The notes beneath the pieces were generated by a model. It searched no databases and had not been told where the DNA came from. It saw only the letters and a program-made list of their open reading frames with translations. A stretch of 64,000 bases of DNA from an uncultured Desulfobacterales bacterium (lineage in GTDB: Bacteria > Desulfobacterota > DSM-4660 > Desulfatiglandales > JALVZP01). Positions 48,171 to 64,000 of this stretch are shown piece after piece (positions within the stretch are counted from its first letter, which is position 1; each line of letters opens with the position of its first letter). The position numbers and the translations under genes are program-made. The stretch covers positions 32,353-96,352 of the forward strand of contig CAZMNC010000125.1 of assembly GCA_964567535.1 (NCBI GenBank). The letters run 5' to 3'.

Positions 48171-50681
48171 ATATCTTTTCATCTTTCTGTATAAGGTTTT
48201 TGGGTCTATACCCAACATAGAAGCGGCCTTGCTTTTATGCCATTTGTTTTGGCGGAGGGTTTTTAGTATAATCCTTTTTTCAAATTCACCTACAGCCTGT
48301 TTTAAGCTGCCCGGTTGTATGGCTTCTTCATCTGAAATATCTGTCCCATACTTGTTTAAAAATTCAAAGCTTCCTACTGTAAGGTATCGTTGAATCATTC
48401 CTTGAAGCTCTCTTACATTTCCTGGCCAATCATAATTCATTAAAAGATCCATATACTTGGCTGGAAGGGTTGGAGGATGTTTACCTTTACTGTAAATCTT
48501 AAGAAAATGTTCTACAAGTAAAGGGATATCCTCTTTTCTTTCTCTAAGAGGCGGGATAAAAATTGGTATAATACTGATTCTATAATAAAAATCTTCTCTC
48601 ATTTTTCCATTTGATACCAATTGTGACAAATCATTGTTTGTTGCAGATATAAGCCTAAAATCTGATCTGTATATTTTAGTATCCCCTATGGGTGTATATT
48701 CCCCTGTTTCCAAGGCTCTTAGAAATTTAACCTGAATATTTATATCTAATTCTCCTATTTCATCCAAAAATAAAGTGCCTTTATCAGCCACATATAAGTA
48801 ACCCTTTTTATCTGCATGGGCTCCAGTAAATGCACCTTTTTTATGGCCAAAAAACTCACTTTCTGCCAACTGCTCAGGTATTGCTCCACAATTTACAGCC
48901 ACAAAGGGTTTGTCAGCCCTGGGACTTAATCTATGTATAGCTCTTGCCACAAGTTCTTTTCCTGTTCCAGATTCTCCTAAGATTACCACACTTGCATCTG
49001 AATTTGCTGCTTTTAATATTAATTCATAAATTTGCTGCATTGACTGGCTTTTTCCTATAATATCACCAAATTTATATCTATCTTTGATAGTAGATTTGAG
49101 CTTTATATTTTCTTTTCTAAAATATTCTGTTTCTTCTTGCATTCTCTTTTCCCACAATACCTGTTCAGTAACATCTCTTATAGTAGCCAATATAGCGGGT
49201 CTGGATCTCAAGGTTATAATATTCCTGTTAATAGATACCCAAATCTCTTTCCCCTTTTTGGTTATTCCCAAAAGCCAATTCATAGATTCTATATGATGAT
49301 TACTATTAGCTGTAAAATATGGATCAAATATCTTTTTACATAAAGAATGGAAATCAGGATTAAATATCCCTTCTATTTCGATACCTATAACCTTTTCTGG
49401 GTCAGAAAATTCAAACATTTCTGCAAATGCTTTATTTGTAAATAAAACTTTACCATTTTGGACCAAAACTACACCATCAGCCACAGACTCAGTAAGACTC
49501 CTATATAACTGCTCTCTTTCCCTGACATCCCTATGTGCTCTCTTTAATTCAGTAAGATCTCTCATTATGGAAAGCTTGGAAATTGTACCATCTGGATTTC
49601 TTATAGGAGTATCCAAAACATCATATATCTTTCTCCTTCTTTCAAAATGCCACTCCCTTCTAAGAGTCTTTTTCTTAAGCACTTCATAAAGATTACAACC
49701 ATCACAAACATTGCTTTTGCCAAAATACTCAAAACATTTCTTACCATTAATTGGTCCAAACTCCTGCTCCAAGGCAGGATTTATATATTCTATCTCATAA
49801 TTATCATTGACCTTATATATAAGATCTTTCATAGAACTTAATATATTCTTTATATTTCTGCTCTCAAGCCTTAAAGATTCTTCTGTTCTAAATCTTTCAG
49901 CAATTCTGCCAAGTCTTTCACTTATGGCATCTATTAAATCCTTTTCCATAAGAGAATCACTTTCCTCTTTGAAATAATAGACCTCTATACTGCCACCCCA
50001 TTCCTCATTTATTACTATATCACTGGAATATTTCCATGGAGTGATACGAAAATTTTTGGATCTAAATTCATTGTAGCCCAAGATAATTCTAACACATATT
50101 CTATCAGAGGCTTGAATTGCAGATGGAATAATATCTACAATCCCCTGAGCTATTTCCTCTAAAGTAATATTTGGTCTTTCCCTTAATGTAGCTATTTGAT
50201 AAAGACAATATAACTCTCTTTTTTTCTGAACAAGCTCATAAGTACGTTTTTTTAAAAGGCTTTTAGTATCTACTAAAATATTTTCAAGATGTTGTTTTTC
50301 TGATAATAGATATTGTAATCTAATCTCATCTCTTAAAATAGATTTAATATGCGCCAGCAATAATTTACCTGCTATAGGCCATAACCAAAATTGAGATGCT
50401 CCTGACTCCAGTATATTACTAATACTTTCAGATGATATATTTTTTTCTCCTATAACAATAACAGGAGCTTGATTATATCTTGATTTTATCAGAGATATTT
50501 CATTAAATAATATATCTTCTTTATGGTTTCCCGCATTTAAGACAACCAAAGAAGGTGAGTCATTGGAAAAGTCTTTTATAGAAGATACAAAGATAATCTC
50601 TACATTCAATGCATCTTTTAAGGAATCTAACAATACCTTTTTTTCTTCTTCTGAAAAGTTTATTCCTAATATTAAAGGCAT
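48156..50681 (-). CDS. Sigma-54-dependent transcriptional activator (bEBP) with degenerate receiver-like N-terminus and PAS sensor domains
   Basis: 841 aa. AAA+ core with GESGTGKE and the GAFTGA loop. C-terminal Fis-type HTH (AASMLGIDPKTLYRKMKRYGI). PAS-like regions sit upstream. The N-terminal 120 aa look like a receiver domain but lack the conserved Asp/Thr/Lys. Confidence 0.9.
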   Translation of the reverse strand: MPLILGINFSEEEKKVLLDSLKDALNVEIIFVSSIKDFSNDSPSLVVLNAGNHKEDILFNEISLIKSRYNQAPVIVIGEKNISSESISNILESGASQFWLWPIAGKLLLAHIKSILRDEIRLQYLLSEKQHLENILVDTKSLLKKRTYELVQKKRELYCLYQIATLRERPNITLEEIAQGIVDIIPSAIQASDRICVRIILGYNEFRSKNFRITPWKYSSDIVINEEWGGSIEVYYFKEESDSLMEKDLIDAISERLGRIAERFRTEESLRLESRNIKNILSSMKDLIYKVNDNYEIEYINPALEQEFGPINGKKCFEYFGKSNVCDGCNLYEVLKKKTLRREWHFERRRKIYDVLDTPIRNPDGTISKLSIMRDLTELKRAHRDVREREQLYRSLTESVADGVVLVQNGKVLFTNKAFAEMFEFSDPEKVIGIEIEGIFNPDFHSLCKKIFDPYFTANSNHHIESMNWLLGITKKGKEIWVSINRNIITLRSRPAILATIRDVTEQVLWEKRMQEETEYFRKENIKLKSTIKDRYKFGDIIGKSQSMQQIYELILKAANSDASVVILGESGTGKELVARAIHRLSPRADKPFVAVNCGAIPEQLAESEFFGHKKGAFTGAHADKKGYLYVADKGTLFLDEIGELDINIQVKFLRALETGEYTPIGDTKIYRSDFRLISATNNDLSQLVSNGKMREDFYYRISIIPIFIPPLRERKEDIPLLVEHFLKIYSKGKHPPTLPAKYMDLLMNYDWPGNVRELQGMIQRYLTVGSFEFLNKYGTDISDEEAIQPGSLKQAVGEFEKRIILKTLRQNKWHKSKAASMLGIDPKTLYRKMKRYGIYA

Positions 50682-50733
50682 ATTTCATCCCCCCATAAAA
50701 CCTATTTATTATTTTACAGGAGGTAAAATATAA

Positions 50734-51501
50734 TTGGAAGTAATTATATTGGGCTCAGGAACCTTTATTCCTATACCTGAAAGATCGTCTCCTTGCATAT
50801 TAATAAAAACCCAGAGGAGTATTATATTATTAGATATAGGTCCAGGATCAGTGCGCCAAATTGCAAAAACAGGGCTATCATGTGCAATGATCAATTACGT
50901 ATTTCTTTCACATTTTCATCCTGACCACACAGCAGATATTATTCACCTGTTTTTTACTATCAAAAATATAGACGAAATATTTAAACGGCCATTAATAATA
51001 TCTGGCCCTATAGGAACTAAAAGATTTATAAACGACCTTCAGCAAGCTTATTTAGGACATATAGATTTATCACCCAATATGTTAAAAATAGATGAACTTG
51101 GAAAAAAGAGTAGAAGGGAATATACAGATTTTAGTCTTATATCTCAACCTATGAAACACTCCAAAGAAAGCATAGGATTTCGCATAGAAGATAACTTAGG
51201 AAAAAGTTTGGTTTATTCTGGAGATACTGGAATATGTGATGAAATAATAGATCTGGCAAAAATGGCTGACATATTGATACTGGAATGTTCATTACCTGAA
51301 GAATATATAAATGCTCATAACATAGAAACCCATCTTAGTCCCTCAGATGCTGGAAAAATCGCATCTAAAGCAAAGGTAAAACTATTAGTATTGACTCATA
51401 TTTATCCTGAATGTCTAAAAATAGATATTATCAACAGATGCAAAAAGTATTATAAAGGAAATATAATTATAGCTAAGGATTTACTAAAATTAAATATTTA
51501 A
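50734..51501 (+). CDS. MBL-fold metallo-hydrolase (RNase Z-like)
   Basis: 255 aa with a TTG start. HFHPDH (HxHxDH) motif. Confidence 0.8.
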   Translation: MEVIILGSGTFIPIPERSSPCILIKTQRSIILLDIGPGSVRQIAKTGLSCAMINYVFLSHFHPDHTADIIHLFFTIKNIDEIFKRPLIISGPIGTKRFINDLQQAYLGHIDLSPNMLKIDELGKKSRREYTDFSLISQPMKHSKESIGFRIEDNLGKSLVYSGDTGICDEIIDLAKMADILILECSLPEEYINAHNIETHLSPSDAGKIASKAKVKLLVLTHIYPECLKIDIINRCKKYYKGNIIIAKDLLKLNI

Positions 51502-52466
51502 TGATCTCTATCTATTATATAATTACTTAAGTGCAAAAGAGTTTTTTTTGCAGGAGAATCTTTAAAATATTGAAGGGCATTCTGGGCCTTTTTTGTAAAA
51601 AAGAAGGCATCTTTTTTGGTATTAAATATACCCTGACTTTTTATAACCATTTCTATAATATCACTATATTCTGAATCAAAAATTTCTCTTTGTTGTAATA
51701 TCTGCTTTACTTTCATTCTATCATGAGTTTTCATTTCTTCAAGGGCATATATAAGAGGAAGCGTGATTTTCCCTTCTTTTAGGTCCTTTCCTACAGGTTT
51801 TCCAAATACATCTTCTGAAGAAGTATAATCGAGTATGTCATCAATTAACTGAAATGCCATGCCCAAATAGAGACCAAATTCAGACAAAGCCTTTTCTACC
51901 TTTTCTCCTTTATTAGCGATAATAGCTGCACAACCACATGCAGCAGATAAAAGAGCCGCTGTCTTTTTTTTGATTATATTCATATATTCTTCTTTTGTAA
52001 TATTAGGATTATTGGTGCAAGCTATTTCCATTAACTGACCTTCTACCATATCAGTAGTGGCAGAGATGACTTTTTTTAGAAATCTAAAATTTCCTTCATT
52101 TATTGCTGTTACTAATGAACGCGAATACAAATAATCTCCCTCTAATATAGCCACATGATCACCCCATTTATTATTTACAGAAGGTTTATTACGTCTTGTT
52201 TCTGCATTATCCAAAACATCGTCATGCAACAATGATGCTACATGTATGTACTCAAAAACAGTAGATAATGAATAAACGTGATCCTTTTCATAATCTAAAA
52301 GTTTACAGGAAAGGATAAAAAGCAAAGGTCTAAGCAATTTGCCATTTCCTAAAAGTATATGGGCACCGATCTCTTTAATAAAAGGGATAGGAGAACCCAT
52401 ATTATTTATGAGTTCTTGGGTAATCTTTTTTATATAATTTTTTTCCCCTACTATATGGGGACTCAT
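51498..52466 (-). CDS. Long-chain polyprenyl diphosphate synthase (IspB-like)
   Basis: 322 aa. First and second Asp-rich motifs (LLHDDVLD and LIDDILD). Confidence 0.9.
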   Translation of the reverse strand: MSPHIVGEKNYIKKITQELINNMGSPIPFIKEIGAHILLGNGKLLRPLLFILSCKLLDYEKDHVYSLSTVFEYIHVASLLHDDVLDNAETRRNKPSVNNKWGDHVAILEGDYLYSRSLVTAINEGNFRFLKKVISATTDMVEGQLMEIACTNNPNITKEEYMNIIKKKTAALLSAACGCAAIIANKGEKVEKALSEFGLYLGMAFQLIDDILDYTSSEDVFGKPVGKDLKEGKITLPLIYALEEMKTHDRMKVKQILQQREIFDSEYSDIIEMVIKSQGIFNTKKDAFFFTKKAQNALQYFKDSPAKKTLLHLSNYIIDRDH

Positions 52467-53785
52467 AGTATCTCTCCTACAAGATGATAAGCATATGCTT
52501 CTGTTATATAGACAGGCATAATTTTACCTATAATACCATATCCTTTATTTATTATCACTTGCCCATCTATATCTGGGGCCATAGCAAAACTCCTACCCAC
52601 AAGTAAAAGATCTGTTTCTGGGTGTTTTCCTTCTATAAGAACCGGGATAATGTTACCTACTATCTTTTTGTTTTTTTTCTCAGAAATATCTCCTTGAAGG
52701 CATAAAAGAAAATCTCTCCTTTCCTCTGCAAGCTTTTTTTCTACTTGATTTTTAAATCTTGCAGCAGGCGTTCCTTTTTCAGGACTAAAAACAAATACAC
52801 CTAAATAATCAAATTCTATTTCTTTTATAAAATCACATAATTCTTGAAAAATATTATCTGTTTCTCCGGGAAAGCCTACTATAACGGTAGTTCTTAGATA
52901 TATCTTCCTGTGAAGTTTTTTTATTCTGTTTATCATCCTTATCAAATAATCTTTGCTATAACCCCGATTCATAAGCCCTAATATCTTATCATTTGCATGT
53001 TGAATAGGAATATCCATATAAGGACAAATTCTTTCCTCGGTCTCTATAAGCCTTAAAAGACGTTCAGATACACCATTAGGATGAAGATAAAGTAGCCTTA
53101 TCCAGTCCAGCCCCTTTATTTCCAGAAGCATTTCTATTATATCTGGCAAACTAATATCTCGTTGCAAATCATTTCCATAAGCAGTTATATCTTGAGCAAT
53201 GATGTTCAGCTCCTTCACACCACATTCTACAAGCTGTCTTGCTTCCTCAACTAATAAATCAGAAGAAACACTTCTAACAGGGCCTCTTAACTTGGGAATG
53301 AGGCAATAAGAACATCTATGGGAACATCCATCAGATATTTTTAAATATGCACTATAAAAAGGAGCACTTTTCAGCCTTGGTATAGAATAAGTCTGCACAT
53401 ATGTAGGAGTTGATATAAAACAACCCTTTTTATTGACTTTAAATATATCACCTATTAAATAAAATTGTGCAGTTCCTATCCATATATCTACTTCTGGTAT
53501 TTCTCTCATAAGCTTATAACCATATCTTTGAACTAAACAACCAACTACTACCAATTTTTTTAATGATCCTGATGCCTTAAGACGAGCTACATCTAATATA
53601 GTTTCCACAGACTCCTTTACAGATTCATGAATAAAACCACATGTGTTTATAATTACTGTGTCAGCATGTCCTGGATCTTCAACAACTTCTAATTTATCAA
53701 ACATAGAATTAAGGATACCCAACATGTATTCACTGTCCACCAGATTTTTGGGACAGCCAAGGCTAATCATACAAATCTTTTGCAC
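52463..53785 (-). CDS. rimO: Ribosomal protein S12 methylthiotransferase RimO
   Basis: 440 aa. MTTase N-domain (SLGCPKN), radical SAM CSHRCSYC, and a C-terminal TRAM domain. Confidence 0.88.
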   Translation of the reverse strand: MQKICMISLGCPKNLVDSEYMLGILNSMFDKLEVVEDPGHADTVIINTCGFIHESVKESVETILDVARLKASGSLKKLVVVGCLVQRYGYKLMREIPEVDIWIGTAQFYLIGDIFKVNKKGCFISTPTYVQTYSIPRLKSAPFYSAYLKISDGCSHRCSYCLIPKLRGPVRSVSSDLLVEEARQLVECGVKELNIIAQDITAYGNDLQRDISLPDIIEMLLEIKGLDWIRLLYLHPNGVSERLLRLIETEERICPYMDIPIQHANDKILGLMNRGYSKDYLIRMINRIKKLHRKIYLRTTVIVGFPGETDNIFQELCDFIKEIEFDYLGVFVFSPEKGTPAARFKNQVEKKLAEERRDFLLCLQGDISEKKNKKIVGNIIPVLIEGKHPETDLLLVGRSFAMAPDIDGQVIINKGYGIIGKIMPVYITEAYAYHLVGEIL

Positions 53786-55783
53786 CTATTTTTTTAAGGC
53801 CTCCTGAATCTTCTTGATCAGGACAGCAGAGCGGATGGGCTTTTGTAAATATTTTAAGCCAGCAGTAGAAATACCTTTTTCAGCAATAACATAATCTGGA
53901 TAACCACTCATAAATATTGCCTTTATATCAGGTTTCAGCCTTTTCATAGCATCAAAGGCAGATTTTCCATGTTTATATGGCATAACGATATCCATTAAGA
54001 TTAAATCGACTTTATCCAAATTTTCTTCAAATTTCTTTATTGCATCATCTCCATTAACTGCCAATATTACATTATAACCAAACTCTGTCAAAAGTTCTCT
54101 TAGATAATCTCTTACATATATATCATCATCAGCCACAAGTATGGTTCCAGAACCATGGGGTATGTCTTTAAGAGAACCTTCATCTTCCTGCGAAACTGCC
54201 TCTTCATCAACAACAGGAAGATATATTTTAAATGTGGTTCCTTCCCCAGGAGAACTTATTACATCTATAAAACCCCCGTGCTCTTTTATAATAGAATAAG
54301 AATTATAAAGACCAAGACCAGTGCCTTTTCCTACCTCTTTTGTGGTAAAAAAAGGATCAAATATCTTCTTCTTTGTTTCTTCATCCATCCCCATACCTGT
54401 ATCTTCAACAGAAATAACAGCATATTTACCAGGATTTGTATGAGCCCCATGTTTCTTTGCCTTCTCTTCAGAAACTTCTACCACATAGGTCCTAATATTT
54501 AAAACCCCACCCAATGGCATAGCATCCTGTGCATTTGCCACCATATTCATCATAACCTGATACAACTGAGCAGCATTTACATAAACTACTGGATCCTCAT
54601 TGGAAAGACTTAGATTTACCTGTATATCATCAGTTACAATATCAGCCAAAAGCTTTTTCACCATTACAATTTGATCATTTAACTTTATAGGCTGTTTCTT
54701 TATTTGTTTATCCTTGGTATATGTCAAAAGCCTATCTATCATCTCCCGAGCCCTCACACACGACATAACAATACGATTTGCTGTATCCATATCTATCTTA
54801 TCACCTACCTCAAGGCGATATTTGATCATATCAGCGCCACCCATGATAGAAGACAACATGTTATTAAAATCATGAGCAATGCCTCCTGCCAAACTTCCCA
54901 TTGCTTCTAATTTTTGGGCGTTAAGCAATTGTTGCTCTAATCTCTTTTTTTCTTCCTCTCTCTTTCTCAACATCCTTACCATTTCATTAAAAGCAGTGGC
55001 CAATCTAAAAGCTTCTTCATGATCAACCTCTACAGGAATTTCATAAAATTCCTTTGTACTTCCAAAACGACGCACCATTTGAGCCACCCTATCAATAGGA
55101 CCAATTATCTTCATACAAGATCTTCTTACCCAATAATAAGTAATCGCAAGAATCAGAAAAAGTATTGTAAGAGATATAAATATGCAATTCTTCTGTTTTC
55201 TTATAATATTTGATTTATCCAATATCAGTTCTGTCCATCCTATCAACTTTTTTTCCTTAGGTATAATGCCCAATATCATTTCCTCTTCATTTTTAAATTC
55301 CCTTATCACATAAACAGGAGCCCATATATCAACATATTTATTATACTCAAATATAAAAGGAGGCTTTTCTTTATTATTCATTTTATCCTTTATCTTAAAA
55401 ATACTGGTTAATCTTGGCAGACTCTTTTGCCCTTTATTTTTTGCTATATTAATAAGCACGGCATCTTTATCAAATATAGATATACCCACAACATTGGGTT
55501 GATACAAAAAGCCCATAGCTTCACCCATGAGAAGCTCTTTATTACCAGCCATAACCCCAAATCTGGAGTTTATTGCCAGAGCACTCACAAGAGATTTACC
55601 TTCATTTATAAGAGAATTTTTAACAGAAAGAATCTGTTGCACAGAAAAAAAGACAAAAATTGAGATAAATATAATCAAAAACGTAGTAGAAAAAGCTGTC
55701 ATTATACGCAAAAAAAGCCCCTTCTTTTTTGAATATGAAAAAGAGGAAGCAAAAAACCTAAAAAAAGACTTTAACTTATTCAT
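53786..55783 (-). CDS. Hybrid sensor histidine kinase / response regulator
   Basis: 665 aa. Two TM helices flank a periplasmic segment. HAMP-like linker, H-box GIAHDFNN, and HATPase G-boxes (GMGMDEET, GTGLGL). C-terminal receiver (ILVADDD...LILMDIVMP). Confidence 0.85.
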   Translation of the reverse strand: MNKLKSFFRFFASSFSYSKKKGLFLRIMTAFSTTFLIIFISIFVFFSVQQILSVKNSLINEGKSLVSALAINSRFGVMAGNKELLMGEAMGFLYQPNVVGISIFDKDAVLINIAKNKGQKSLPRLTSIFKIKDKMNNKEKPPFIFEYNKYVDIWAPVYVIREFKNEEEMILGIIPKEKKLIGWTELILDKSNIIRKQKNCIFISLTILFLILAITYYWVRRSCMKIIGPIDRVAQMVRRFGSTKEFYEIPVEVDHEEAFRLATAFNEMVRMLRKREEEKKRLEQQLLNAQKLEAMGSLAGGIAHDFNNMLSSIMGGADMIKYRLEVGDKIDMDTANRIVMSCVRAREMIDRLLTYTKDKQIKKQPIKLNDQIVMVKKLLADIVTDDIQVNLSLSNEDPVVYVNAAQLYQVMMNMVANAQDAMPLGGVLNIRTYVVEVSEEKAKKHGAHTNPGKYAVISVEDTGMGMDEETKKKIFDPFFTTKEVGKGTGLGLYNSYSIIKEHGGFIDVISSPGEGTTFKIYLPVVDEEAVSQEDEGSLKDIPHGSGTILVADDDIYVRDYLRELLTEFGYNVILAVNGDDAIKKFEENLDKVDLILMDIVMPYKHGKSAFDAMKRLKPDIKAIFMSGYPDYVIAEKGISTAGLKYLQKPIRSAVLIKKIQEALKK

Positions 55784-56684
55784 TGACCACCATCCTTATA
55801 CTACTGGTTGACTCAAGCTTTAAACCCAAATCCTTTGCCACATGTGGATTTATCATGATCAATTTACTATTAGGTTTGAGTTTAACCGGCAACTTAACTT
55901 CTTTTTTGAGGATCTTCTTCGCTAACTCCCCTGCCTGAATTCCCATCTTATAAGGATCTGGGTATATAGCCATAAAAGCCCCCATTTTTAAATACTTTTC
56001 GGAAAAGGTTACAATAGGAATCGATTTTTTTAAAAAGAAAAAATTCATAAAACGCAATGTCTCAGGACTAATAACTGTAATATCAGGTGCCATAATATAC
56101 ACATCTATTTTATCAGATATCCAGTCTATGGCCTTAATAGCCTGCTTTAAAGTAACCACCTTTTTTCCAACTATACATAAATGAGCATTTTTGCCTGCAG
56201 CTAAAAGCTCTTTAAATAGATTACGCGAATGCCGAGGATCATATATCATGCCGACACATTTTACCTTTGGTATAAATTTTTTTATATAATAGAGATTGGT
56301 TTTAGCGGAAACAACCATATTTATACCAGCAAAATTCTTTTTTCCTTGGATTAATATATCTGGATTTAATACCATCAGATAAATTACAGGAATATCTCTT
56401 ATTGAAGCAAGCTCAGATAAAGCCCATTCTCCTATTGCAAATAGGATTTGTGGCCTTTTCTTTTCTACGTACTTTTTTATATCTTTTTTATATTCATAAA
56501 GGATTATTCTTTGCGTATTGGAATCAAATGAATCCTTTATTCCTTTAAAGACCTTATTATAGGGAGGGATACCAACACCTTGGACAACTATAGCTAAGGG
56601 AAAAGCAAAGTTATATCCCCCACTTAACAAGAATATTATAAATATAAAACAAATACTGTTGCCAATTAGCCTTAAATGTTGCAT
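55776..56684 (-). CDS. Periplasmic ABC-type substrate-binding-like protein (ABC_sub_bind family), coupled to the histidine kinase
   Basis: 302 aa with a signal/anchor helix. Overall resemblance to the PF04392-type binding proteins often found with sensor kinases. Overlaps the kinase gene by 8 nt. Confidence 0.6.
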   Translation of the reverse strand: MQHLRLIGNSICFIFIIFLLSGGYNFAFPLAIVVQGVGIPPYNKVFKGIKDSFDSNTQRIILYEYKKDIKKYVEKKRPQILFAIGEWALSELASIRDIPVIYLMVLNPDILIQGKKNFAGINMVVSAKTNLYYIKKFIPKVKCVGMIYDPRHSRNLFKELLAAGKNAHLCIVGKKVVTLKQAIKAIDWISDKIDVYIMAPDITVISPETLRFMNFFFLKKSIPIVTFSEKYLKMGAFMAIYPDPYKMGIQAGELAKKILKKEVKLPVKLKPNSKLIMINPHVAKDLGLKLESTSSIRMVVNE

Positions 56685-56759
56685 TTTTGGATTGACAAAT
56701 ATTTTGTATATAGTTAACGTTATTCATAAAAAAAAATCAATTAAAAAATAAAGCAAGGG

Positions 56760-58703
56760 GTGACCTTGATAAAAATAATTGGTATTTGGATTTCTTTTAT
56801 GCTTGTTATGCCTTGTTATATGTCATATGCAAGCAGCATGTATCTTGGCTCCAATACCAATAAGGCAAAGATGTTACAAAAAGAGATGCAGATACTTCGT
56901 TTGTTTTATACAGACAAAGAGTTGGTAATAACCAGCACAAGACAGCCAAAACTTATATCAAAAGTAGCAAAAAACATGAGTATTATTACAAAAAAAGATA
57001 TAGAAATAATGAATGCCCATAATGTGGCAGATATATTACACAGGATAGCAGGGATTTTTCTTGATATTTATAGCCAAGATATGGGATCACCTGCCTTTAT
57101 TCAGATATATGGATCAGAACAAAGGCAGGTATTGGTAATGATAGATGGTATGCCCATAAACTTCCATTCTGAGGGTTATGCAGAGCTTAACTCTATTCCA
57201 GTAGATATAATAAAAAGGATAGAAATCATAAAAGGTCCTGCTTCTTCTTCATGGGGTTCATCTATTGGTGGCGTAATAAACATAATAACAAAAGATGTAA
57301 AGAATTCTAAAAAACCCACAGGTTATATAAGATTCTCTTATGGAGAAAGATATACCTATGACACAGGCGCACAGGTATCAGGAAGATATAAAAATATAGG
57401 CTATTATATGTTCACAGGAAGACAAGGAACAGATGGTCTTAGGAATAAAAGGGATTATAAAAGGAACAACATATATTCAAAATTTGATGTTGATCTCTCA
57501 GATAATATAGATTTTAAGCTCTCTCTGGGATATAGCGACCCTGAAAATGATCTTGGCAAATATTTTCATTTAGCTCCAGGTTTGCATTCTTATTCCAAGA
57601 ACCATTTTTATTTTCTTAAATCAGATCTCAAGGCGCATATAAGTAATGGGACAGACCTGAACTTTATGTTTTACCATATAAAACAAAGGGTTAATCTGGA
57701 CAACAAACATATATTCACTAATATTCCCTACTTTAGTCAAAGTTTTGATGAGGAAACATATGGAGGAAGAATAAGGCTTGGGATAAAAAGGGGGAGGCAC
57801 AATGGTTCTATTGGAATAGATATTGAGAGGGATGATATGGATCTTACTATAGATGCAGGACCTGCGCTTCAGGCATTAGGAGTACCTGCAACAGCATTGT
57901 TTAGCCCCCATAGAGAAAAATGGGCATTTTATATAAATGATACCATTGATATAGGACATCTGAGTATTATACCAGAGCTTAGATACGATCATGACAGCAC
58001 CACAGGCTCTTTTGTAAGCCCAAGCCTTGGACTTGCATATAGGCTGGGGCAGCACACCATACTTAGGGCACAAATAGCAAGGGGATTTACACCTCCGCCT
58101 CTTTCCTGGATGTATGGGGGAGGGATATTTTTGATGCCAAATAAGGGTCTGGATCGAGAAAGGATAATGCTTTATCAAATAGGCGCAGAAACCAGTATAT
58201 TAAAGTATTTATGGATAAAAGGCACTATTTTTAGGCATGAAATAGATGATTATATAAAAAGGCTAAGAGTTCCTCCTACAATAATGGGCAGGTATCAAAA
58301 TTCTGGGGATCTAAAGAAAAATGGTATAGAGCTTTTGGCAAAATCTATCCCATTTTATGGATTTAGGCTGTTTGGCTCTTATACATTTGTTCATTTTAAT
58401 CCGCCTAAAGAAACAGGCATTTCAGCCCTTAGAAAATATACATGTGGGGTAAGGTATGAAGACCATGGTATAATGGCAGAACTTTTTGGAAACTATATAT
58501 GGTGGAATCTGGATTCCACATATGGTGCCAGTTATGACAATATGATATGGGATCTAAATGTAAAAAAGGCATTTGACTTTAATAAAAACAAGGCATACTT
58601 ATATGTGGGTATCCATAATTTGTTTAATGGAGCTCAATATAGCTTTTTTGACAGGAAAAACCCCAAAAGGTGGGTAGAGGTGGGTTTCAGGGTAGATTTT
58701 TAA
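56760..58703 (+). CDS. TonB-dependent outer-membrane receptor
   Basis: 647 aa with a GTG start. Signal peptide, plug domain (ITKKDIEIMNAHNVADILHRIAG, IEIIKGPASSSWGS), a beta-barrel, and a terminal aromatic residue (RVDF). Confidence 0.85.
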   Translation: MTLIKIIGIWISFMLVMPCYMSYASSMYLGSNTNKAKMLQKEMQILRLFYTDKELVITSTRQPKLISKVAKNMSIITKKDIEIMNAHNVADILHRIAGIFLDIYSQDMGSPAFIQIYGSEQRQVLVMIDGMPINFHSEGYAELNSIPVDIIKRIEIIKGPASSSWGSSIGGVINIITKDVKNSKKPTGYIRFSYGERYTYDTGAQVSGRYKNIGYYMFTGRQGTDGLRNKRDYKRNNIYSKFDVDLSDNIDFKLSLGYSDPENDLGKYFHLAPGLHSYSKNHFYFLKSDLKAHISNGTDLNFMFYHIKQRVNLDNKHIFTNIPYFSQSFDEETYGGRIRLGIKRGRHNGSIGIDIERDDMDLTIDAGPALQALGVPATALFSPHREKWAFYINDTIDIGHLSIIPELRYDHDSTTGSFVSPSLGLAYRLGQHTILRAQIARGFTPPPLSWMYGGGIFLMPNKGLDRERIMLYQIGAETSILKYLWIKGTIFRHEIDDYIKRLRVPPTIMGRYQNSGDLKKNGIELLAKSIPFYGFRLFGSYTFVHFNPPKETGISALRKYTCGVRYEDHGIMAELFGNYIWWNLDSTYGASYDNMIWDLNVKKAFDFNKNKAYLYVGIHNLFNGAQYSFFDRKNPKRWVEVGFRVDF

Positions 58704-58716
58704 AAGGTCTTATGTT

Positions 58717-58806
58717 ATGAAAAAAAGAATCATAGTTGTGGAAAAGGGGAAAAAGCCAGGTCCTTCTAATGTATGTTGTGGAGCTCTTCTGGTACCTATA
58801 TTCTAA
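58717..58806 (+). CDS. Unannotated 29-aa ORF: candidate RiPP precursor peptide MKKRIIVVEKGKKPGPSNVCCGALLVPIF
   Basis: ATG at 58717 and TAA at 58804, read directly from the sequence. It is too short for the ORF track. It lies 13 nt after the receptor stop, has AAAGG upstream, and abuts or overlaps the radical SAM/SPASM gene. Confidence 0.45.
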   Translation: MKKRIIVVEKGKKPGPSNVCCGALLVPIF

Positions 58807-60104
58807 CAGAAGAAAAGGTGGAATTATCTTTTTACATAAAAAAGCAGACATCAAATAGTGATCCTGAGGCCCTCATCCTCTACTCCACCAAAACCTCATC
58901 CACAATAATTATTCCAAAGGATTTATTGGAATCTATAGAAAAAAAAAGGATTACCCCTGAAGAGAAGCAGACCCTTAAAGAACTGGGATTTCTTGTGCAA
59001 AGCAGACAAAAAGAAAGGGATGAGATAATCCATCTTTTTGATAACATCAAAAATCCCTATCTAAATATACTCCTTGTGCTTAATATGGACTGTAATTTTT
59101 CATGTAAGTACTGTTTTGAGGGTTCATCCAAAACAGGGCTATATATGTCTAAGCATATATTAAATAAGTCAATGGAATTTATAAAAGATGAACTTTATAA
59201 AAAAAAGGCATCAGAGCTAAGACTTGCCCTGTATGGTGGTGAACCCCTGCTAAGCCCTGAGCTTGCAATAGAATCGCTTAAAAAGGCAAAAACACTATGT
59301 GAGAATATAGGAATAAATTTTAGGGCATCTATTATAACTAATGGTTCTTTATTTAAGAAAAAAATAGTCAAAGAACTATCACAACTGGGGCTTGCAAGAG
59401 CCCGCATTACTCTTGACGGGCCTCCTGAAATACATAATATATTTAGGCCATTTAAAAATGGAAGACCCAGCTTTGATATAATCTTAAAAAATATAAAAGA
59501 AAGCCTTGGCATAATAAAAGCCCTTGAAATAAATGGAAATTATTCAAAAGAAAATTATACCCAATTTCCAAAATTGCTTGATCTTCTTTTAAAAGAAGGT
59601 ATAACCCCAGATAAGGTTGAAAGTATAAGATTTGAACCAATTATAAAACAAACATCTGGCATGTCTTTGTATAAAGGAGGATGCCTATCTATAAATGAGC
59701 CTTGGGTAGCAGAAACCAGCCTGTTTTTACGAGAGGAAATAATGAAAAGGGGCTATAAAACAAAAAGGATAGAACCCATATTTTGCCTTATAAACAATAA
59801 AAATGCTTTTATTATAAACATAGATGGAGCTCTTTATAAGTGCCCTGGATTTTTAGGCATAAAAGAATTTCAGATAGGAGACATATTCTCTGGCTCAAAA
59901 GAGCCTTTAGTTTATCATCCTAATAGATGGAAAAATGAAAAATGTTCTTCATGTATTTACCTTCCTCTATGTTATGGGGGATGCAGATATATGTCTTATC
60001 TAAGATATGGGGATTTATATCGCTTAGATTGTCAAAAGCCTTTCTTAGATCAATACTTAGACAGATTCATAGAACAGGATATAAGATATAAAGGAATTGG
60101 ATAA
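58773..60104 (+). CDS. Radical SAM / SPASM-domain peptide-modifying enzyme (candidate RiPP maturase)
   Basis: CNFSCKYC (Cx3Cx2C) and GGEPLL. The full 7-Cys SPASM pattern is C-x13-G-x4-C ... CSSCIYLPLCYGGC ... C. About 85 aa precede the radical SAM cluster motif. The start may be the in-frame GTG at 58818 rather than the ATG at 58773, which overlaps the small ORF. Confidence 0.85.
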   Translation: MLWSSSGTYILTEEKVELSFYIKKQTSNSDPEALILYSTKTSSTIIIPKDLLESIEKKRITPEEKQTLKELGFLVQSRQKERDEIIHLFDNIKNPYLNILLVLNMDCNFSCKYCFEGSSKTGLYMSKHILNKSMEFIKDELYKKKASELRLALYGGEPLLSPELAIESLKKAKTLCENIGINFRASIITNGSLFKKKIVKELSQLGLARARITLDGPPEIHNIFRPFKNGRPSFDIILKNIKESLGIIKALEINGNYSKENYTQFPKLLDLLLKEGITPDKVESIRFEPIIKQTSGMSLYKGGCLSINEPWVAETSLFLREEIMKRGYKTKRIEPIFCLINNKNAFIINIDGALYKCPGFLGIKEFQIGDIFSGSKEPLVYHPNRWKNEKCSSCIYLPLCYGGCRYMSYLRYGDLYRLDCQKPFLDQYLDRFIEQDIRYKGIG

Positions 60105-60693
60105 AGGATCAAGAAATCTATTTTTATTTACAGGATTAAGCACCATATGGGCTGTTATATTTGGCCTCATAGGCCCGTTTTATGTGGTTCATGTAGAAAG
60201 ACTAACAGGAGGCATGGAAAAACTGGGCATTGCCTTTAGTATAATGATATTTTTTCAATCTGCAGCTTCTTATATAGCTGGAAAATCATCAGACAAATTG
60301 GGGAGAAAGCCTTTTCTGTTCCTTATTGCTTATGCAGATGCCATTATCATATTTCTGTACACCATTATAAAAGGCACATATCAATTGTATATGCTTCAGG
60401 GTCTCTTTGGAATTAGTAATGGAATTGCCCAAACCATAAGTACTTCTCTCTTAGGAGATATTACTACAAAACACAAAAGAGGAAAGGCGGTAGGCATATT
60501 TCATGCCATTGTAGGAGTTGCTTCATCAATTGGGCTTGTGCTTAGTGGTTATATAGCAAAATTTTATGGAATAAAAACTATCTTTTATATAGCCTCATTC
60601 ATCATGCTTATCTCTACCATCTTTCTTTTTTGGATACGAGAGGACGTAGTCTTTGAGGACAAAAAAAACAATAATAACAATACTGGCACTTAA
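60097..60693 (+). CDS. Half-size (6-TM) MFS-type transporter
   Basis: 198 aa. The TTG start overlaps the maturase stop by 8 nt. MFS motif A-like GKSSDKLGRKPFLF lies between TM2 and TM3. Six hydrophobic helices only. Confidence 0.65.
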   Translation: MDKGSRNLFLFTGLSTIWAVIFGLIGPFYVVHVERLTGGMEKLGIAFSIMIFFQSAASYIAGKSSDKLGRKPFLFLIAYADAIIIFLYTIIKGTYQLYMLQGLFGISNGIAQTISTSLLGDITTKHKRGKAVGIFHAIVGVASSIGLVLSGYIAKFYGIKTIFYIASFIMLISTIFLFWIREDVVFEDKKNNNNNTGT

Positions 60694-60807
60694 CATTAAA
60701 ATCTCATGGGCATGCTTTGGAAACTTATACACAAGATAGTGTTTAACAAAATATAAAAAAGGAACTGAAAGCACAAACCATATTATAAGTGGGATAAATC
60801 TTTTCAT
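60595..60807 (-). CDS. Possible small membrane protein (70 aa) downstream of mnmE
   Basis: The ATG lies 4 nt after the mnmE stop and there are two hydrophobic helices. However, it overlaps the convergent MFS gene by 99 nt and has no clear RBS. Confidence 0.3.
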   Translation of the reverse strand: MKRFIPLIIWFVLSVPFLYFVKHYLVYKFPKHAHEILMLSASIVIIVFFVLKDYVLSYPKKKDGRDKHDE

Positions 60808-60811
60808 AATC

Positions 60812-62197
60812 TTATTTTCCCAAACAAAATTGGCTGAATATTTTATCTAAGATGTCTTCTGTGGTTATCTCTCCTGTTATCTGAGCAAGAGCATCCATTG
60901 AACTCCTTATTTCAAACGCTATTATATCAAATGGCTCACCTTCTTTTATAAGATGTAAGGCACTAATAAGGTATTTTAATGCATTTTCTAATGCCTCTTT
61001 ATGTCTCAAGTTTGGAGCAATATTAGACTCTGTGACTTCTATTTTCCCTTTTACAATTGTATCAAATATAAGACTTTTCAGCTCTTCAAGCCCTTTCCCA
61101 GTAAGTGCAGATATGTGCACCATAGGAAAAGAATATAACATCAATCTGGCTTTATCCTCATGGTTTAAAGATGATCTAAGATCTGTTTTGTTCAGTACAA
61201 AAATACAAGATTTATCTTTGCACATCTCTATTATATCCAGATCATCCTTGTCTAAGGGCCTGCTTTTATCTATTACAATCAGTACAAGGTCTGCTTCTCT
61301 TAATTTTTTTGTAGTAATAGAAATACCTATTTTTTCCACTTCATCTTTTACCTCCCTTAAACCAGCAGTATCCATAAGCCTTATGGGTAAGCCTTTAATT
61401 AATATGCTACTTTCTATTACATCTCTTGTGGTCCCCGGAATAGGGGTAACAATGGCTCTCTCCTCATCCAGAAGTCTATTGAGCAAACTTGATTTGCCTG
61501 CATTTACCTTTCCTACAATAACAGTAGCTATGCCATCTAACCATAATCTCCTTTGGCTGTGCATATGAATCATAGATTCTATGTGAGGTATTATATCTTT
61601 TTCCAATTCTTGTGCTATATCTAATCTGGATATTACAGCATCTTCTTCTTCAGGAAAATCTATAGCTACTTCTATCTGGGCAAGTATATCTGTTATTTTA
61701 TCTTTTAAAGAATTTATCTCTTTTTTAAATACCCCTTGAAGCTGATGAGTTGCTAAAAATAAACCTCGTTCAGATTGGGCATTTATTAAATCTATAATTG
61801 CTTCTGCCTGAGTAAGATCTATTCTACCATTTAAAAATGCCTTTAAAGTAAACTCACCAGGTTTTGCAAGCCTCGCTCCCTGAGAAAGGATTATCTCAAG
61901 TATCTTGGATAGCACAAGATAGCCACTATGAGAATTTATCTCCACTACATCCTCTTTTGTATATGAATGAGGTGCCTTCATATAAGAAACAAGTACTTCA
62001 TCTATAATAGCTTCTTTAGTAGGATCATATATATTACCCAAGTATAAATGATGACTTTTAAACCCTTTAGTCTCCCTTTTTGGAATAAAAATGTTTTTTA
62101 AAATAGAAAGAGACAGGGGGCCACTAATTCTTATGATACCTATGCCTGCCTGACCTATAGGAGTTGATATGGCAGCTATGGTATCCTCACCTTCCAT
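60812..62197 (-). CDS. mnmE: tRNA modification GTPase MnmE
   Basis: 461 aa. G-domain motifs (GKVNAGKSS, DTAG, NKTD) and the C-terminal CLGK tetrapeptide characteristic of MnmE. Confidence 0.95.
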   Translation of the reverse strand: MEGEDTIAAISTPIGQAGIGIIRISGPLSLSILKNIFIPKRETKGFKSHHLYLGNIYDPTKEAIIDEVLVSYMKAPHSYTKEDVVEINSHSGYLVLSKILEIILSQGARLAKPGEFTLKAFLNGRIDLTQAEAIIDLINAQSERGLFLATHQLQGVFKKEINSLKDKITDILAQIEVAIDFPEEEDAVISRLDIAQELEKDIIPHIESMIHMHSQRRLWLDGIATVIVGKVNAGKSSLLNRLLDEERAIVTPIPGTTRDVIESSILIKGLPIRLMDTAGLREVKDEVEKIGISITTKKLREADLVLIVIDKSRPLDKDDLDIIEMCKDKSCIFVLNKTDLRSSLNHEDKARLMLYSFPMVHISALTGKGLEELKSLIFDTIVKGKIEVTESNIAPNLRHKEALENALKYLISALHLIKEGEPFDIIAFEIRSSMDALAQITGEITTEDILDKIFSQFCLGK

Positions 62198-62906
62198 TTC
62201 TATTACCTTTTTGTGAAGAAAAATTCCCCTTTGAACGTCTTTTATTTTCTCTATTTCTTGAAAACTTAGGAATTATAATAACTTTTTTTAAAGAGCCCTC
62301 TCCTGTACTTTTAGTCTCTAAACCTTTATCATCTTTTAAAGCAAGATGAATTACCCTTCTATCCCTGGGACTTAAAGGATCTGTTGAAACAGGTTTTCCT
62401 GTCTTCTTTGCTTTATTTCCCATGTTAACTGCAAGCCTTGCAAGATGTTGTCTTCTTCGCTCTCTATAATTTTGGGCATCCAGAATTATCTGAAGTTTTT
62501 TCTCAAGCTTCTTATTCACTATTTTGTTTATGATAAACTCTAAAGCATCAAGGGTTTTTCCACCTTTGCCTATAATTATACCAGAGTTATCTCCTTCTAT
62601 CTTTAATAGGATATTACCATCTAAATTTTCTGTCCTAACAGCCAAATGATCCATAGAAAATAGCTTTAAGATATTTTTTAGCGCATCAGTTGCGATTGCT
62701 ACTCCATCATTAATAAATGTATCTCTTTCTTTTATCCTTACCCTTATCCTGCTTTTTTTGCCACCAACTATACCAAATATACCTGAAGAGCCAGGCTCTA
62801 TAACTTCTATTTCTAACTTCTCTTTTGGTAAGTTTAATTCCTTACATGCCTTTTCTATTGCCTCCTCTGTTGTTTTTCCTTGAAATTCAAATGTCTCAAG
62901 CTCCAT
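62187..62906 (-). CDS. jag: Jag/KhpB RNA-binding protein (Jag_N, KH, R3H domains)
   Basis: 239 aa. KH-like GKGGKTLDALEFI, an R3H region (RRVIHLAL), and the canonical position between yidC and mnmE. Confidence 0.85.
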   Translation of the reverse strand: MELETFEFQGKTTEEAIEKACKELNLPKEKLEIEVIEPGSSGIFGIVGGKKSRIRVRIKERDTFINDGVAIATDALKNILKLFSMDHLAVRTENLDGNILLKIEGDNSGIIIGKGGKTLDALEFIINKIVNKKLEKKLQIILDAQNYRERRRQHLARLAVNMGNKAKKTGKPVSTDPLSPRDRRVIHLALKDDKGLETKSTGEGSLKKVIIIPKFSRNRENKRRSKGNFSSQKGNRNGR

Positions 62907-62923
62907 AATCCCCCTCCGAAACC

Positions 62924-64000
62924 TTAGGATAATCTTTTTTGAATCCTATATTGTTGGATAATAGACAGTATGTTGTTAACCAGCCAATAAAGGACCAAAC
63001 CAGATGGAAAATTTATAAACATAATTGTGAAAACAAGAGGCAAAAACATCATCATTTTTGCCTGAGATGGATCACCAGGCTGTGGACTCATCTTTTGTTG
63101 AATATACATGGTGGCCCCCATAAGTAATGTTAGGACAGGAATACCATAAGGTGGTGCCATAAGAGGAATAGAAAATGAAAAATGGAAAAGTCTATCAGGT
63201 GCTGAAAGATCATTTATCCATAACATAAATGGTGCATGTCTCAATTCTATGGCATCACAAAGAACCCTATAAAGGGCAAAAAAGACAGGAATCTGCACTA
63301 TTATAGGCAAACACCCACTAAATGGATTTACTTTGTATGTCTTATACAGATTAAGCATCTCTCTGTTAAGCCTTTCTTTATCATCTTTATATCGTTCTCT
63401 TAATTTAGCCATTAAAGGTTGGATCTTTTGCATCTGCTTCATAGATTCATAGCTTTTGTGAGTAAGAGGCCAAAATATTATTTTGACTAATATGGTCAAC
63501 AATATAATTGCAATACCATAGTTATGAACATATTTATAAAAAAACCTAAGCACATAAAGCAAAGGCCTTGCAATAAAATCAGTCCACCCAAAGTTTACTA
63601 TTTTATCTAAATGATACCCTATTTTCTTTAATATAGGGATTTCCTTGGGACCTAAATAAAGTATGAATTTGTGTTGTATCTCCTCAGAAGGAGAAATTGT
63701 CACTGAAGGACCTTTATAATATGCTGCCAATATATTGGAACCAAATCTTTTTACCTCTAATACTCCATTGGAAAGATTAGTTACTATAGATGCCATAAAG
63801 TATCTGCTTTCACATGCAAGCCATTTTATGTTACCAGCAAATAACTTCTTTTGTCCCTTCTTTTTCAATTTTATTTGCTTTAACTGATTTTGAATAAAAG
63901 CTGCAAGCCCCAGATGAGAATAATATCTTGTTCTTTTGTGGTTAGGTAAAAGACTCCGTAGTTTTATAATAAACGAGCCTTTAACAGGAGACTTTCTTAA
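62924..64000 (-). CDS. yidC: Membrane protein insertase YidC (C-terminal part; the N-terminus lies beyond the right window edge)
   Basis: Conserved 60-kDa insertase core (PLTHKSYESMKQMQKIQPLM...GCLPIIVQIPVFFALY...). The reading frame stays open from the track TTG at 63868 to base 64000, which fits a long periplasmic N-domain. Confidence 0.9.
   Translation of the reverse strand, partial: LRKSPVKGSFIIKLRSLLPNHKRTRYYSHLGLAAFIQNQLKQIKLKKKGQKKLFAGNIKWLACESRYFMASIVTNLSNGVLEVKRFGSNILAAYYKGPSVTISPSEEIQHKFILYLGPKEIPILKKIGYHLDKIVNFGWTDFIARPLLYVLRFFYKYVHNYGIAIILLTILVKIIFWPLTHKSYESMKQMQKIQPLMAKLRERYKDDKERLNREMLNLYKTYKVNPFSGCLPIIVQIPVFFALYRVLCDAIELRHAPFMLWINDLSAPDRLFHFSFSIPLMAPPYGIPVLTLLMGATMYIQQKMSPQPGDPSQAKMMMFLPLVFTIMFINFPSGLVLYWLVNNILSIIQQYRIQKRLS

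Follow-up and report, generated by a model that had tools for sequence, protein, structure and literature searches.

A probable, unannotated geopeptide precursor gene upstream of a radical SAM/SPASM maturase in an uncultured Desulfobacterales bacterium

The geopeptide system is a computational definition for Geobacter and its relatives in NCBIfam/TIGRFAMs, where it consists of a precursor peptide model, TIGR04229, and a maturase model, TIGR04280; presumably the family was defined in TIGRFAMs. Two other described systems share part of the gene content treated below. Methanobactin (Mbn) operons encode a ribosomally made and post-translationally modified peptide (RiPP) that serves as a chalkophore, together with MbnT as TonB-dependent receptor, MbnE as periplasmic binding protein, and an exporter. 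A radical S-adenosylmethionine (SAM) RiPP (RaS-RiPP) cluster of Parabacteroides combines a precursor peptide and a radical SAM enzyme with a two-component system and a TonB-dependent receptor (PMC9389541). Here we analyze a locus in a stretch of 64,000 nucleotides (the window) from an uncultured Desulfobacterales bacterium (assembly GCA_964567535.1, contig CAZMNC010000125.1, positions 32,353 to 96,352 of the forward strand). A preliminary description of this DNA had pointed to a small open reading frame (ORF) at 58717-58806 as the gene for a RiPP precursor whose leader is basic and whose core contains Cys-Cys, with expression coupled to that of the adjacent radical SAM/SPASM maturase. Comparative genomics supports that proposal, and we consider it very likely that the ORF is a true geopeptide-family precursor gene which annotation has missed.

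The positions first given for this ORF are all correct. It runs from ATG 58717 to TAA 58806; the receptor ORF upstream ends at 58703 and the annotated maturase ATG is at 58773, which leaves a gap of 69 nt and gives a 34-nt overlap of the annotated maturase with the peptide ORF, and an in-frame GTG at 58818 follows 11 nt past the peptide stop. The length of the ORF is not significant in itself: at the 33% GC of the window, 29 codons would stay open by chance with an estimated frequency of about 10%, and as many as 132 ORFs with 20 aa or more fall wholly or partly within the last 12 kb of the window. The case must therefore rest on comparison across genomes. The peptide gene was left uncalled by the gene callers of three sources, and the exact window peptide was not found in a collection of 15 billion proteins in which the contig is present, which means that gene calling passed over it in that source as well. 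An ORF of a size common in the window, and uncalled in three sources, could be a chance product of an AT-rich intergenic region, the enzyme beside it being an anaerobic sulfatase maturase or another enzyme with no RiPP function. Homology, synteny and codon usage argue in the opposite direction. A profile hidden Markov model (HMM) was built from 31 upstream peptides of the distant loci described below, with the window and its close clade excluded. Among the 2354 six-frame segments of the window, it placed segment 58696-58803 of the plus strand first (E = 2.6e-6, 24.2 bits); the runner-up had E = 0.048. The six complete ORFs of the close clade (the window, L081, L082, L085, L086 and L088; L numbers denote loci) have 13/12/26 variable columns at the three codon positions, and stops interrupt the other two frames in most of the six sequences. 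A purine-rich AAGG, AAGGGG or AAGGAG precedes the peptide ATG by 5-9 nt in the window, L081, L082 and L088, the AAGGGG or AAGGAG of the relatives being 5-7 nt 5' of it. As judged from these sequence comparisons the 29-codon ORF is coding, since homology, synteny and codon evidence lift it above chance; a chance origin is effectively refuted and we give it practically no credence.

Six close relatives, whose maturases are 55-71% identical to the window enzyme, have a small ORF at the same place; among them the peptide gene was called only in the source of L088. The window peptide, MKKRIIVVEKGKKPGPSNVCCGALLVPIF, contains a leader motif, IIVVEKG, at residues 5-11, followed by C20-C21 and an eight-residue tail, GALLVPIF. 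The corresponding peptides are MKKRIIVVQKGKRPGSSNVCCGALLVPIF in L081, MKKRIIVVEKGKRPNSSGVCCGSVLVPIF in L082, MKKIIVIEKGKKIEAISPCCGALLAPAW in L085, MNKKIIVVDKGKRPESRGVCCGAILAIIW in L086 and MKKRIIVIDKGKRPEQDGPCCGAILVPAF in L088, and the partial L087 peptide ends in ...CCGVILTPVW. An aromatic residue, F or W, forms the C-terminus throughout this clade.

A scan of more distant genomes, limited to one genome per species, yielded 47 loci with maturases 33-47% identical to the window enzyme. The hosts belong to the Desulfobacterales, the Desulfobulbales, the Desulfuromonadales and Geobacterales, and the Nitrospirota/Thermodesulfovibrionales, with a few metagenome-assembled genomes (MAGs) labelled otherwise. 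Nearly all of the distant loci that have upstream flank contain a small ORF on the same strand, usually 40-130 nt 5' of the maturase, and about 40 of them (Desulfobacterota, Nitrospirota, Geobacterales) encode an upstream Cys-Cys peptide of the same plan. A conserved small ORF beside the maturase orthologs, which the preliminary description had proposed to look for, is thus found in close and distant loci alike. In the common plan the N-terminus is charged and is followed by the hydrophobic motif φφV(L/V)(D/E)xG of the leader, a spacer of 8-12 residues, Cys-Cys, and a short tail. Cys-Cys is invariant in 45 of 45 family peptides, and the leader motif lies 8-12 residues before it in 39 of the 40 peptides in which it could be located. 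In the family alignment M1, C20 and C21 are invariant and G11 is conserved at 90% or more. The tail after Cys-Cys has 8-10 residues in 35 of the 45 peptides (full range 7-19), with Pro at +6 in 20 and Arg or Lys at +8 in 22. Two loci from Thermodesulfovibrionales/Nitrospirae MAGs (L012, 3668-3913; L014, 3709-3948) have a Cys-Cys peptide ORF of about 80 aa, in which a long Lys/Ala-rich, histone-H1-like N-terminal extension replaces the usual short leader.

The spacing N18-V19-C20-C21 in the window peptide had been read as an N-x-x-C motif, and on that basis the peptide could be a precursor of the NxxC type, in which the enzyme links the Asn18 beta-carbon to Cys21. The enzyme NxxcB forms such a thioether between an Asn beta-carbon and Cys, and it tolerates other acceptor residues (PMC9389541). 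The fit does not extend to the family: Asn occupies this position in only 3 of the 45 peptides, Gly or Ser stands there in four of the five complete close relatives, and the maturase belongs to TIGR04280. Chemically, a beta-thioether might still be formed with position -2 or -3, but the NxxC motif does not define the family, and we regard an NxxC-type precursor as highly improbable.

The distance between peptide and maturase is not constant. In L013, L020, L041 and L044 the peptide adjoins the receptor gene but is 390-1760 nt from the maturase, which suggests inserted genes and a tighter linkage of the peptide to the receptor than to the maturase. In two Desulfurivibrionaceae MAGs (L015, L030) receptor and maturase are present and a Cys-Cys peptide was not detected in the fetched flank. 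The variable distance bears on the idea that the small ORF has a regulatory function only, as an upstream ORF through which maturase translation is tuned, the real substrate being encoded elsewhere. In the window the peptide stop lies just before the maturase GTG and the maturase's own ribosome-binding site is weak, both of which fit translational coupling; such coupling is impossible in the loci where 400-1760 nt intervene. Furthermore, it is the amino-acid sequence that is conserved across phyla, with Cys-Cys invariant and the leader motif kept, beyond the mere presence of an ORF. ORF clustering of 54 sequences, namely 53 fetched loci and window positions 50000-64000, yielded no alternative conserved candidate substrate for the maturase. 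A purely regulatory role is accordingly very unlikely, and we continue to treat the ORF as the precursor gene.

With 449 bits, the maturase exceeds the cutoff of 400 bits of the NCBIfam model TIGR04280, which bears the name "geopeptide radical SAM maturase"; the alignment spans model positions 2-427 of 428. Among NCBIfam families, CefB, TIGR04463, Clo7bot, PapB and SCIFF come next, all maturases of Cys-rich peptides and all far under their cutoffs; for example, the SCIFF maturase model gave 97.6 bits against a cutoff of 425, and PapB 132 against 340. Homologs are numerous, with 1684 at E <= 1e-20 among the scored candidates, and the sources that name close and distant homologs use "geopeptide radical SAM maturase". 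In an alignment of 15 homologs the CxxxCxxC cysteines, C92/C96/C99 (numbered from the GTG), are invariant, as are the SPASM cysteines C289, C323-X13-G-X4-C342, C376-X2-C379-X5-C385-X3-C389 and C405. The AlphaFold (AF2) model has a predicted local distance difference test (pLDDT) score of 86 and an N-terminal domain of three strands and three helices, of the RiPP recognition element (RRE) type. The enzyme thus combines the features used to recognize sactipeptide and ranthipeptide maturases: radical SAM, RRE, and SPASM with cysteine sets for two auxiliary Fe-S clusters. The best match of the model among solved structures is CteB, a thioether-forming enzyme (5WHY/5WGG; E = 3e-20, template modelling score 0.68), followed by anSME, TigE, SuiB and ChlB, with PqqE also among the fold matches; CteB is likewise the best sequence match in PDB (1.2e-15). 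An anaerobic sulfatase maturase was considered and rejected: TIGR03942 gave 73.8 bits against a cutoff of 349, and there is no sulfatase gene within 10 kb on either side, so that the alternative substrate envisaged in the preliminary description does not occur near the locus and the sulfatase form of the chance-ORF reading falls with it.

Two start codons had been left open for the maturase, an ATG at 58773 that overlaps the peptide gene and the GTG at 58818. The latter is the true start, as judged from three observations. Position 2 of TIGR04280 corresponds to residue 17 of the ATG-started version; in L082, whose maturase shares 66% identity, the maturase frame does not contain the ATG that lies within the peptide gene, and the maturase is called from the GTG, with 428 aa; and several close homologs (among them P0004 and P0006-P0012) have lengths of 426-431 aa. 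With the GTG start the peptide and maturase genes abut without overlap, and the overlapping ATG can be set aside. In two homologs (P0092, P0113) the maturase is fused to a C-terminal domain of about 290 residues (residues ~435-721), which in L009 (1350-2204) and L011 (5303-6076) is encoded by a separate gene between the maturase and a major facilitator superfamily (MFS) gene. This domain has no Pfam match, and the window has no counterpart of it.

The preliminary description could place the peptide in no named family. Its maturase, as shown above, is a TIGR04280 enzyme, and the homologous peptide of Geotalea toluenoxydans (L035; WP_012648279.1) is annotated "geopeptide" and scores 40.5 bits with TIGR04229, above the cutoff of 30. 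When TIGR04229 was applied to nine peptides beside maturases 33-47% identical to that of the window, only the Geotalea peptide passed; the others scored 10-20 bits or not at all. Considering sequence relationships, the window peptide is a divergent geopeptide, for whose detection the curated precursor model is too narrow. With eight of the nine tested neighboring peptides under the cutoff and the gene uncalled, the geopeptide family is probably larger and more diverse than annotated. The locus, although divergent, belongs to a family that has a name, and so does not represent a system of a new kind.

A different role for such a peptide is as a scaffold for a small cofactor or metabolite derived from Cys-Cys, in the manner of pyrroloquinoline quinone (PQQ) or mycofactocin, with the receptor and binding protein salvaging or sensing a small molecule. 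RRE-SPASM enzymes include the cofactor makers PqqE and MftC, and PqqE is among the fold matches of the maturase; moreover, Cys-Cys alone is invariant, and the tail varies widely both in its sequence and in its length (7-19 residues). NCBIfam has a model for a TonB-dependent receptor named PqqU, with which the receptor of this locus is far below the cutoff. Several observations speak against a cofactor: the loci contain no conserved peptidase or further tailoring enzyme; the nearest maturase families (CefB, PapB, SCIFF) act on Cys-rich peptides, and PqqE and MftC are not among them; and the tail seems to matter, with 8-10 residues in 35 of 45 peptides and a frequent Pro at +6. We therefore judge a cofactor scaffold unlikely, if less so than the regulatory or NxxC readings, and prefer to regard the product as a modified geopeptide.

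The features of the locus are collected in Table 1, with the number of loci in which each protein family was found by the ORF clustering.

Table 1. Predicted features of the geopeptide-type locus, in window coordinates, and occurrence of the protein families among 54 sequences
Feature	Coordinates	Strand	Loci with family	Evidence and remarks
Hybrid sensor histidine kinase	53786..55783	-	at least 20	sCache_4 periplasmic domain, HisKA, HATPase_c, receiver (Pfam, NCBIfam)
Orphan periplasmic binding protein (PF04392, ABC_sub_bind)	55776..56684	-	39	Pfam; divergent from receptor
TonB-dependent receptor, Plug + beta-barrel	56760..58703	+	43	Pfam PF07715, PF00593; callers' start ATG 56799, 634 aa
Shine-Dalgarno-like purine-rich AAAGG	58703..58707	+		9 nt 5' of ATG 58717
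Probable geopeptide-family precursor gene	58717..58806	+		29 aa, ATG 58717 to TAA 58806; MKKRIIVVEKGKKPGPSNVCCGALLVPIF
Geopeptide radical SAM/SPASM maturase	58818..60104	+	50	428 aa from GTG 58818; N-terminal RRE-like domain
Half-size MFS transporter	60097..60693	+	11	198 aa, about 6 transmembrane (TM) segments; PF07690, hydropathy; candidate exporter

The plus strand thus carries a compact array of receptor, peptide, maturase and half-size MFS genes, with the peptide gene second and gaps of 13 nt, 11 nt and -8 nt, the MFS start overlapping the maturase stop by 8 nt. The MFS protein is half the usual size; its length is constant across 11 loci, which shows that it has not been truncated. The receptor is under the cutoff of every specific NCBIfam receptor family. 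On the minus strand, the binding-protein gene ends 8 nt inside the start of the kinase gene, and these two are therefore likely co-transcribed; no ABC permease or ATPase gene lies near the PF04392 gene. GC content is even throughout the locus. A scan for sigma-70 promoters and terminators gave nothing above the shuffled expectation over the locus and no internal terminator-like site between the four plus-strand genes, and an Rfam scan of 55700-61000, for riboswitches such as a cobalamin riboswitch upstream of a BtuB-like receptor, returned nothing credible.

Three further features adjoin or overlap these genes. The region between the divergent PF04392 and receptor genes (56685-56759) is unusually conserved in L081, L082 and L085, as TTGACAAA...TATAGTTAACGTTATTCAT...AAAAAAATCAATCAAAAAA; the two genes probably share a promoter or operator here, and no good sigma-70 or sigma-54 consensus was identified within the region. 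An ORF of 70 aa on the minus strand (60595-60807), has no family match and is conserved within the close clade, at 52-73% identity of the encoded amino acids. It runs tail to tail into the MFS gene, sharing about 99 nt with its 3' end, and both frames appear conserved in the shared part. Just past the kinase gene, at 52463-53785 on the minus strand, is an unrelated radical SAM gene, that of RimO, the ribosomal protein S12 methylthiotransferase (TIGR01125, 460 bits). Genes for VWA and MoxR-type AAA proteins occupy the RimO position in L081 and L082, which places RimO outside the system.

When the neighborhoods of the distant loci were compared, the receptor gene was found to adjoin in 38 of the 47 genome loci. 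Where the upstream flank reaches ~950 nt or more, this makes 38 out of 39 loci; eight of the nine loci that lack it have less than 500 nt of upstream flank. Its placement is upstream and co-directional in 29 loci, upstream and divergent in seven (Geobacter-type), and downstream in two. The PF04392 protein is also found in Geotalea (L035) and in a member of the Nitrospirota (L042), and in the distant loci it is accompanied by kinases of differing architecture: in L035 a HAMP-type histidine kinase with a weak HisKA match and a sigma-54 response regulator, and in L042 a HAMP-HisKA_3 kinase with a LuxR-type regulator. The clustering revealed no conserved protease, ABC transporter or second tailoring enzyme.

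These observations can be assembled into a working scheme. From the general biology of RRE and SPASM domains and from the CteB-like model, the leader motif would dock as a beta-strand on the N-terminal RRE domain of the maturase, and the SPASM auxiliary clusters, together with the 5'-deoxyadenosyl radical, would modify the core at or beside Cys-Cys. That the neighboring radical SAM enzyme modifies the Cys-Cys peptide is probable, and because of the CteB-like fold and the nearest enzyme families the likeliest product would bear one or two thioether cross-links from Cys to carbon atoms of the short tail. The context of receptor, PF04392 protein and kinase suggests a product that is secreted and then taken up or sensed again. 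As gene context would have it, the product might leave the cell, here probably through the six-TM MFS protein acting as a dimer, and re-enter the periplasm through the outer membrane with the help of its dedicated TonB-dependent receptor; there the orphan PF04392 protein would bind it and signal through the adjacent sensor kinase. A binding protein with no ABC partner is, by analogy, more likely a co-sensor; TorT/TorS and LuxP/LuxQ are comparison cases for such an arrangement. The product could accordingly serve as a peptide metallophore based on thiols, or else as a signal that the cell makes itself and that is under feedback control; the sequence cannot decide between the two.

On the widest interpretation, which we put forward tentatively and hold to be no better than a fair way short of probable, geopeptides are widespread radical-SAM-modified Cys-Cys peptides of anaerobic Gram-negative bacteria (Desulfobacterota, Nitrospirota, Geobacterales) that are secreted, re-imported by the receptor and read out by the PF04392 protein and kinase. 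They would then constitute either a RiPP metallophore of a new, thiol-based type or a peptide autoinducer circuit in which active transport carries the signal over the outer membrane, and the window would represent a divergent sub-clade, missed by current models, with its own half-size MFS exporter. Several points weigh against the assignment or the scheme built on it. The window peptide has no match in NCBIfam or Pfam, and TIGR04229 gives none even at E <= 10; its membership of the family hence rests on our own profile of the distant peptides and on context. A search of the accessible literature found no publication or experiment on any geopeptide. Only the Cys-Cys pair is invariant, so that an acceptor residue cannot be named, and no leader protease is conserved among the clustered sequences. 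The MFS protein is found in 11 loci only, which leaves export unexplained in most, and in one Spirochaetales MAG (L039), which has both peptide and maturase, the 4 kb of upstream flank contain no receptor gene. Finally, the roles given to receptor, binding protein and kinase in uptake and sensing are assigned through guilt by association.

A broader precursor profile would recover more geopeptides. The action of a CteB-like enzyme on a bare Cys-Cys core poses an easily testable question, namely which modification is made, and the near-obligate linkage to the receptor, together with the orphan binding protein and kinase, provides a concrete hypothesis of uptake or sensing of a self-made peptide. 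The hosts are environmentally important anaerobes, including relatives of the metal-reducing Geobacter.

In comparison with the geopeptide system as defined in the databases, the locus has a maturase over the TIGR04280 cutoff and, directly upstream on the same strand, a peptide with the leader motif, the invariant Cys-Cys and a short tail; the receptor, PF04392 and kinase neighborhood is likewise seen in Geotalea toluenoxydans (L035). There are some distinct differences. The window peptide is not matched by TIGR04229, in contrast to the 40.5 bits of the Geotalea peptide; its leader is basic (KKR...EKGKK) rather than acidic, its spacer is short, with 8 residues, and the C-terminus in its clade is aromatic, F or W. 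The window receptor gene is co-directional and immediately upstream, whereas it is divergent in the seven Geobacter-type loci, and a half-size MFS gene follows the maturase.

The SCIFF/CteB and PapB ranthipeptide systems share with the window the combination of RRE, radical SAM and SPASM with two auxiliary-cluster cysteine sets. CteB, the best solved-structure match, aligns over the full length, and in these systems, whose maturases form thioethers, a short Cys-containing peptide is likewise the substrate encoded upstream. However, the window enzyme is far under the cutoffs of these families, and the window core has two adjacent Cys instead of six Cys or CxxxD repeats; the host here is Gram-negative, with a dedicated TonB-dependent receptor, and the cross-link is a predicted one.

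The methanobactin operons follow a similar logic of precursor, modifying enzyme, receptor, binding protein and exporter, and Cys sulfur would be a plausible metal ligand in the geopeptide product. The resemblance is a functional analogy drawn from the genes alone: enzymes of the MbnB/MbnC type are not seen here, modification being assigned to a radical SAM/SPASM enzyme, and a sensor kinase, in place of an ABC importer, is the partner of the binding protein. The Parabacteroides cluster is likened to the window locus by gene content alone. It brings the same types of genes together in one cluster, but its precursor has 61 residues, and it includes a peptidase-domain ABC exporter and nucleotidyltransferases (PMC9389541).

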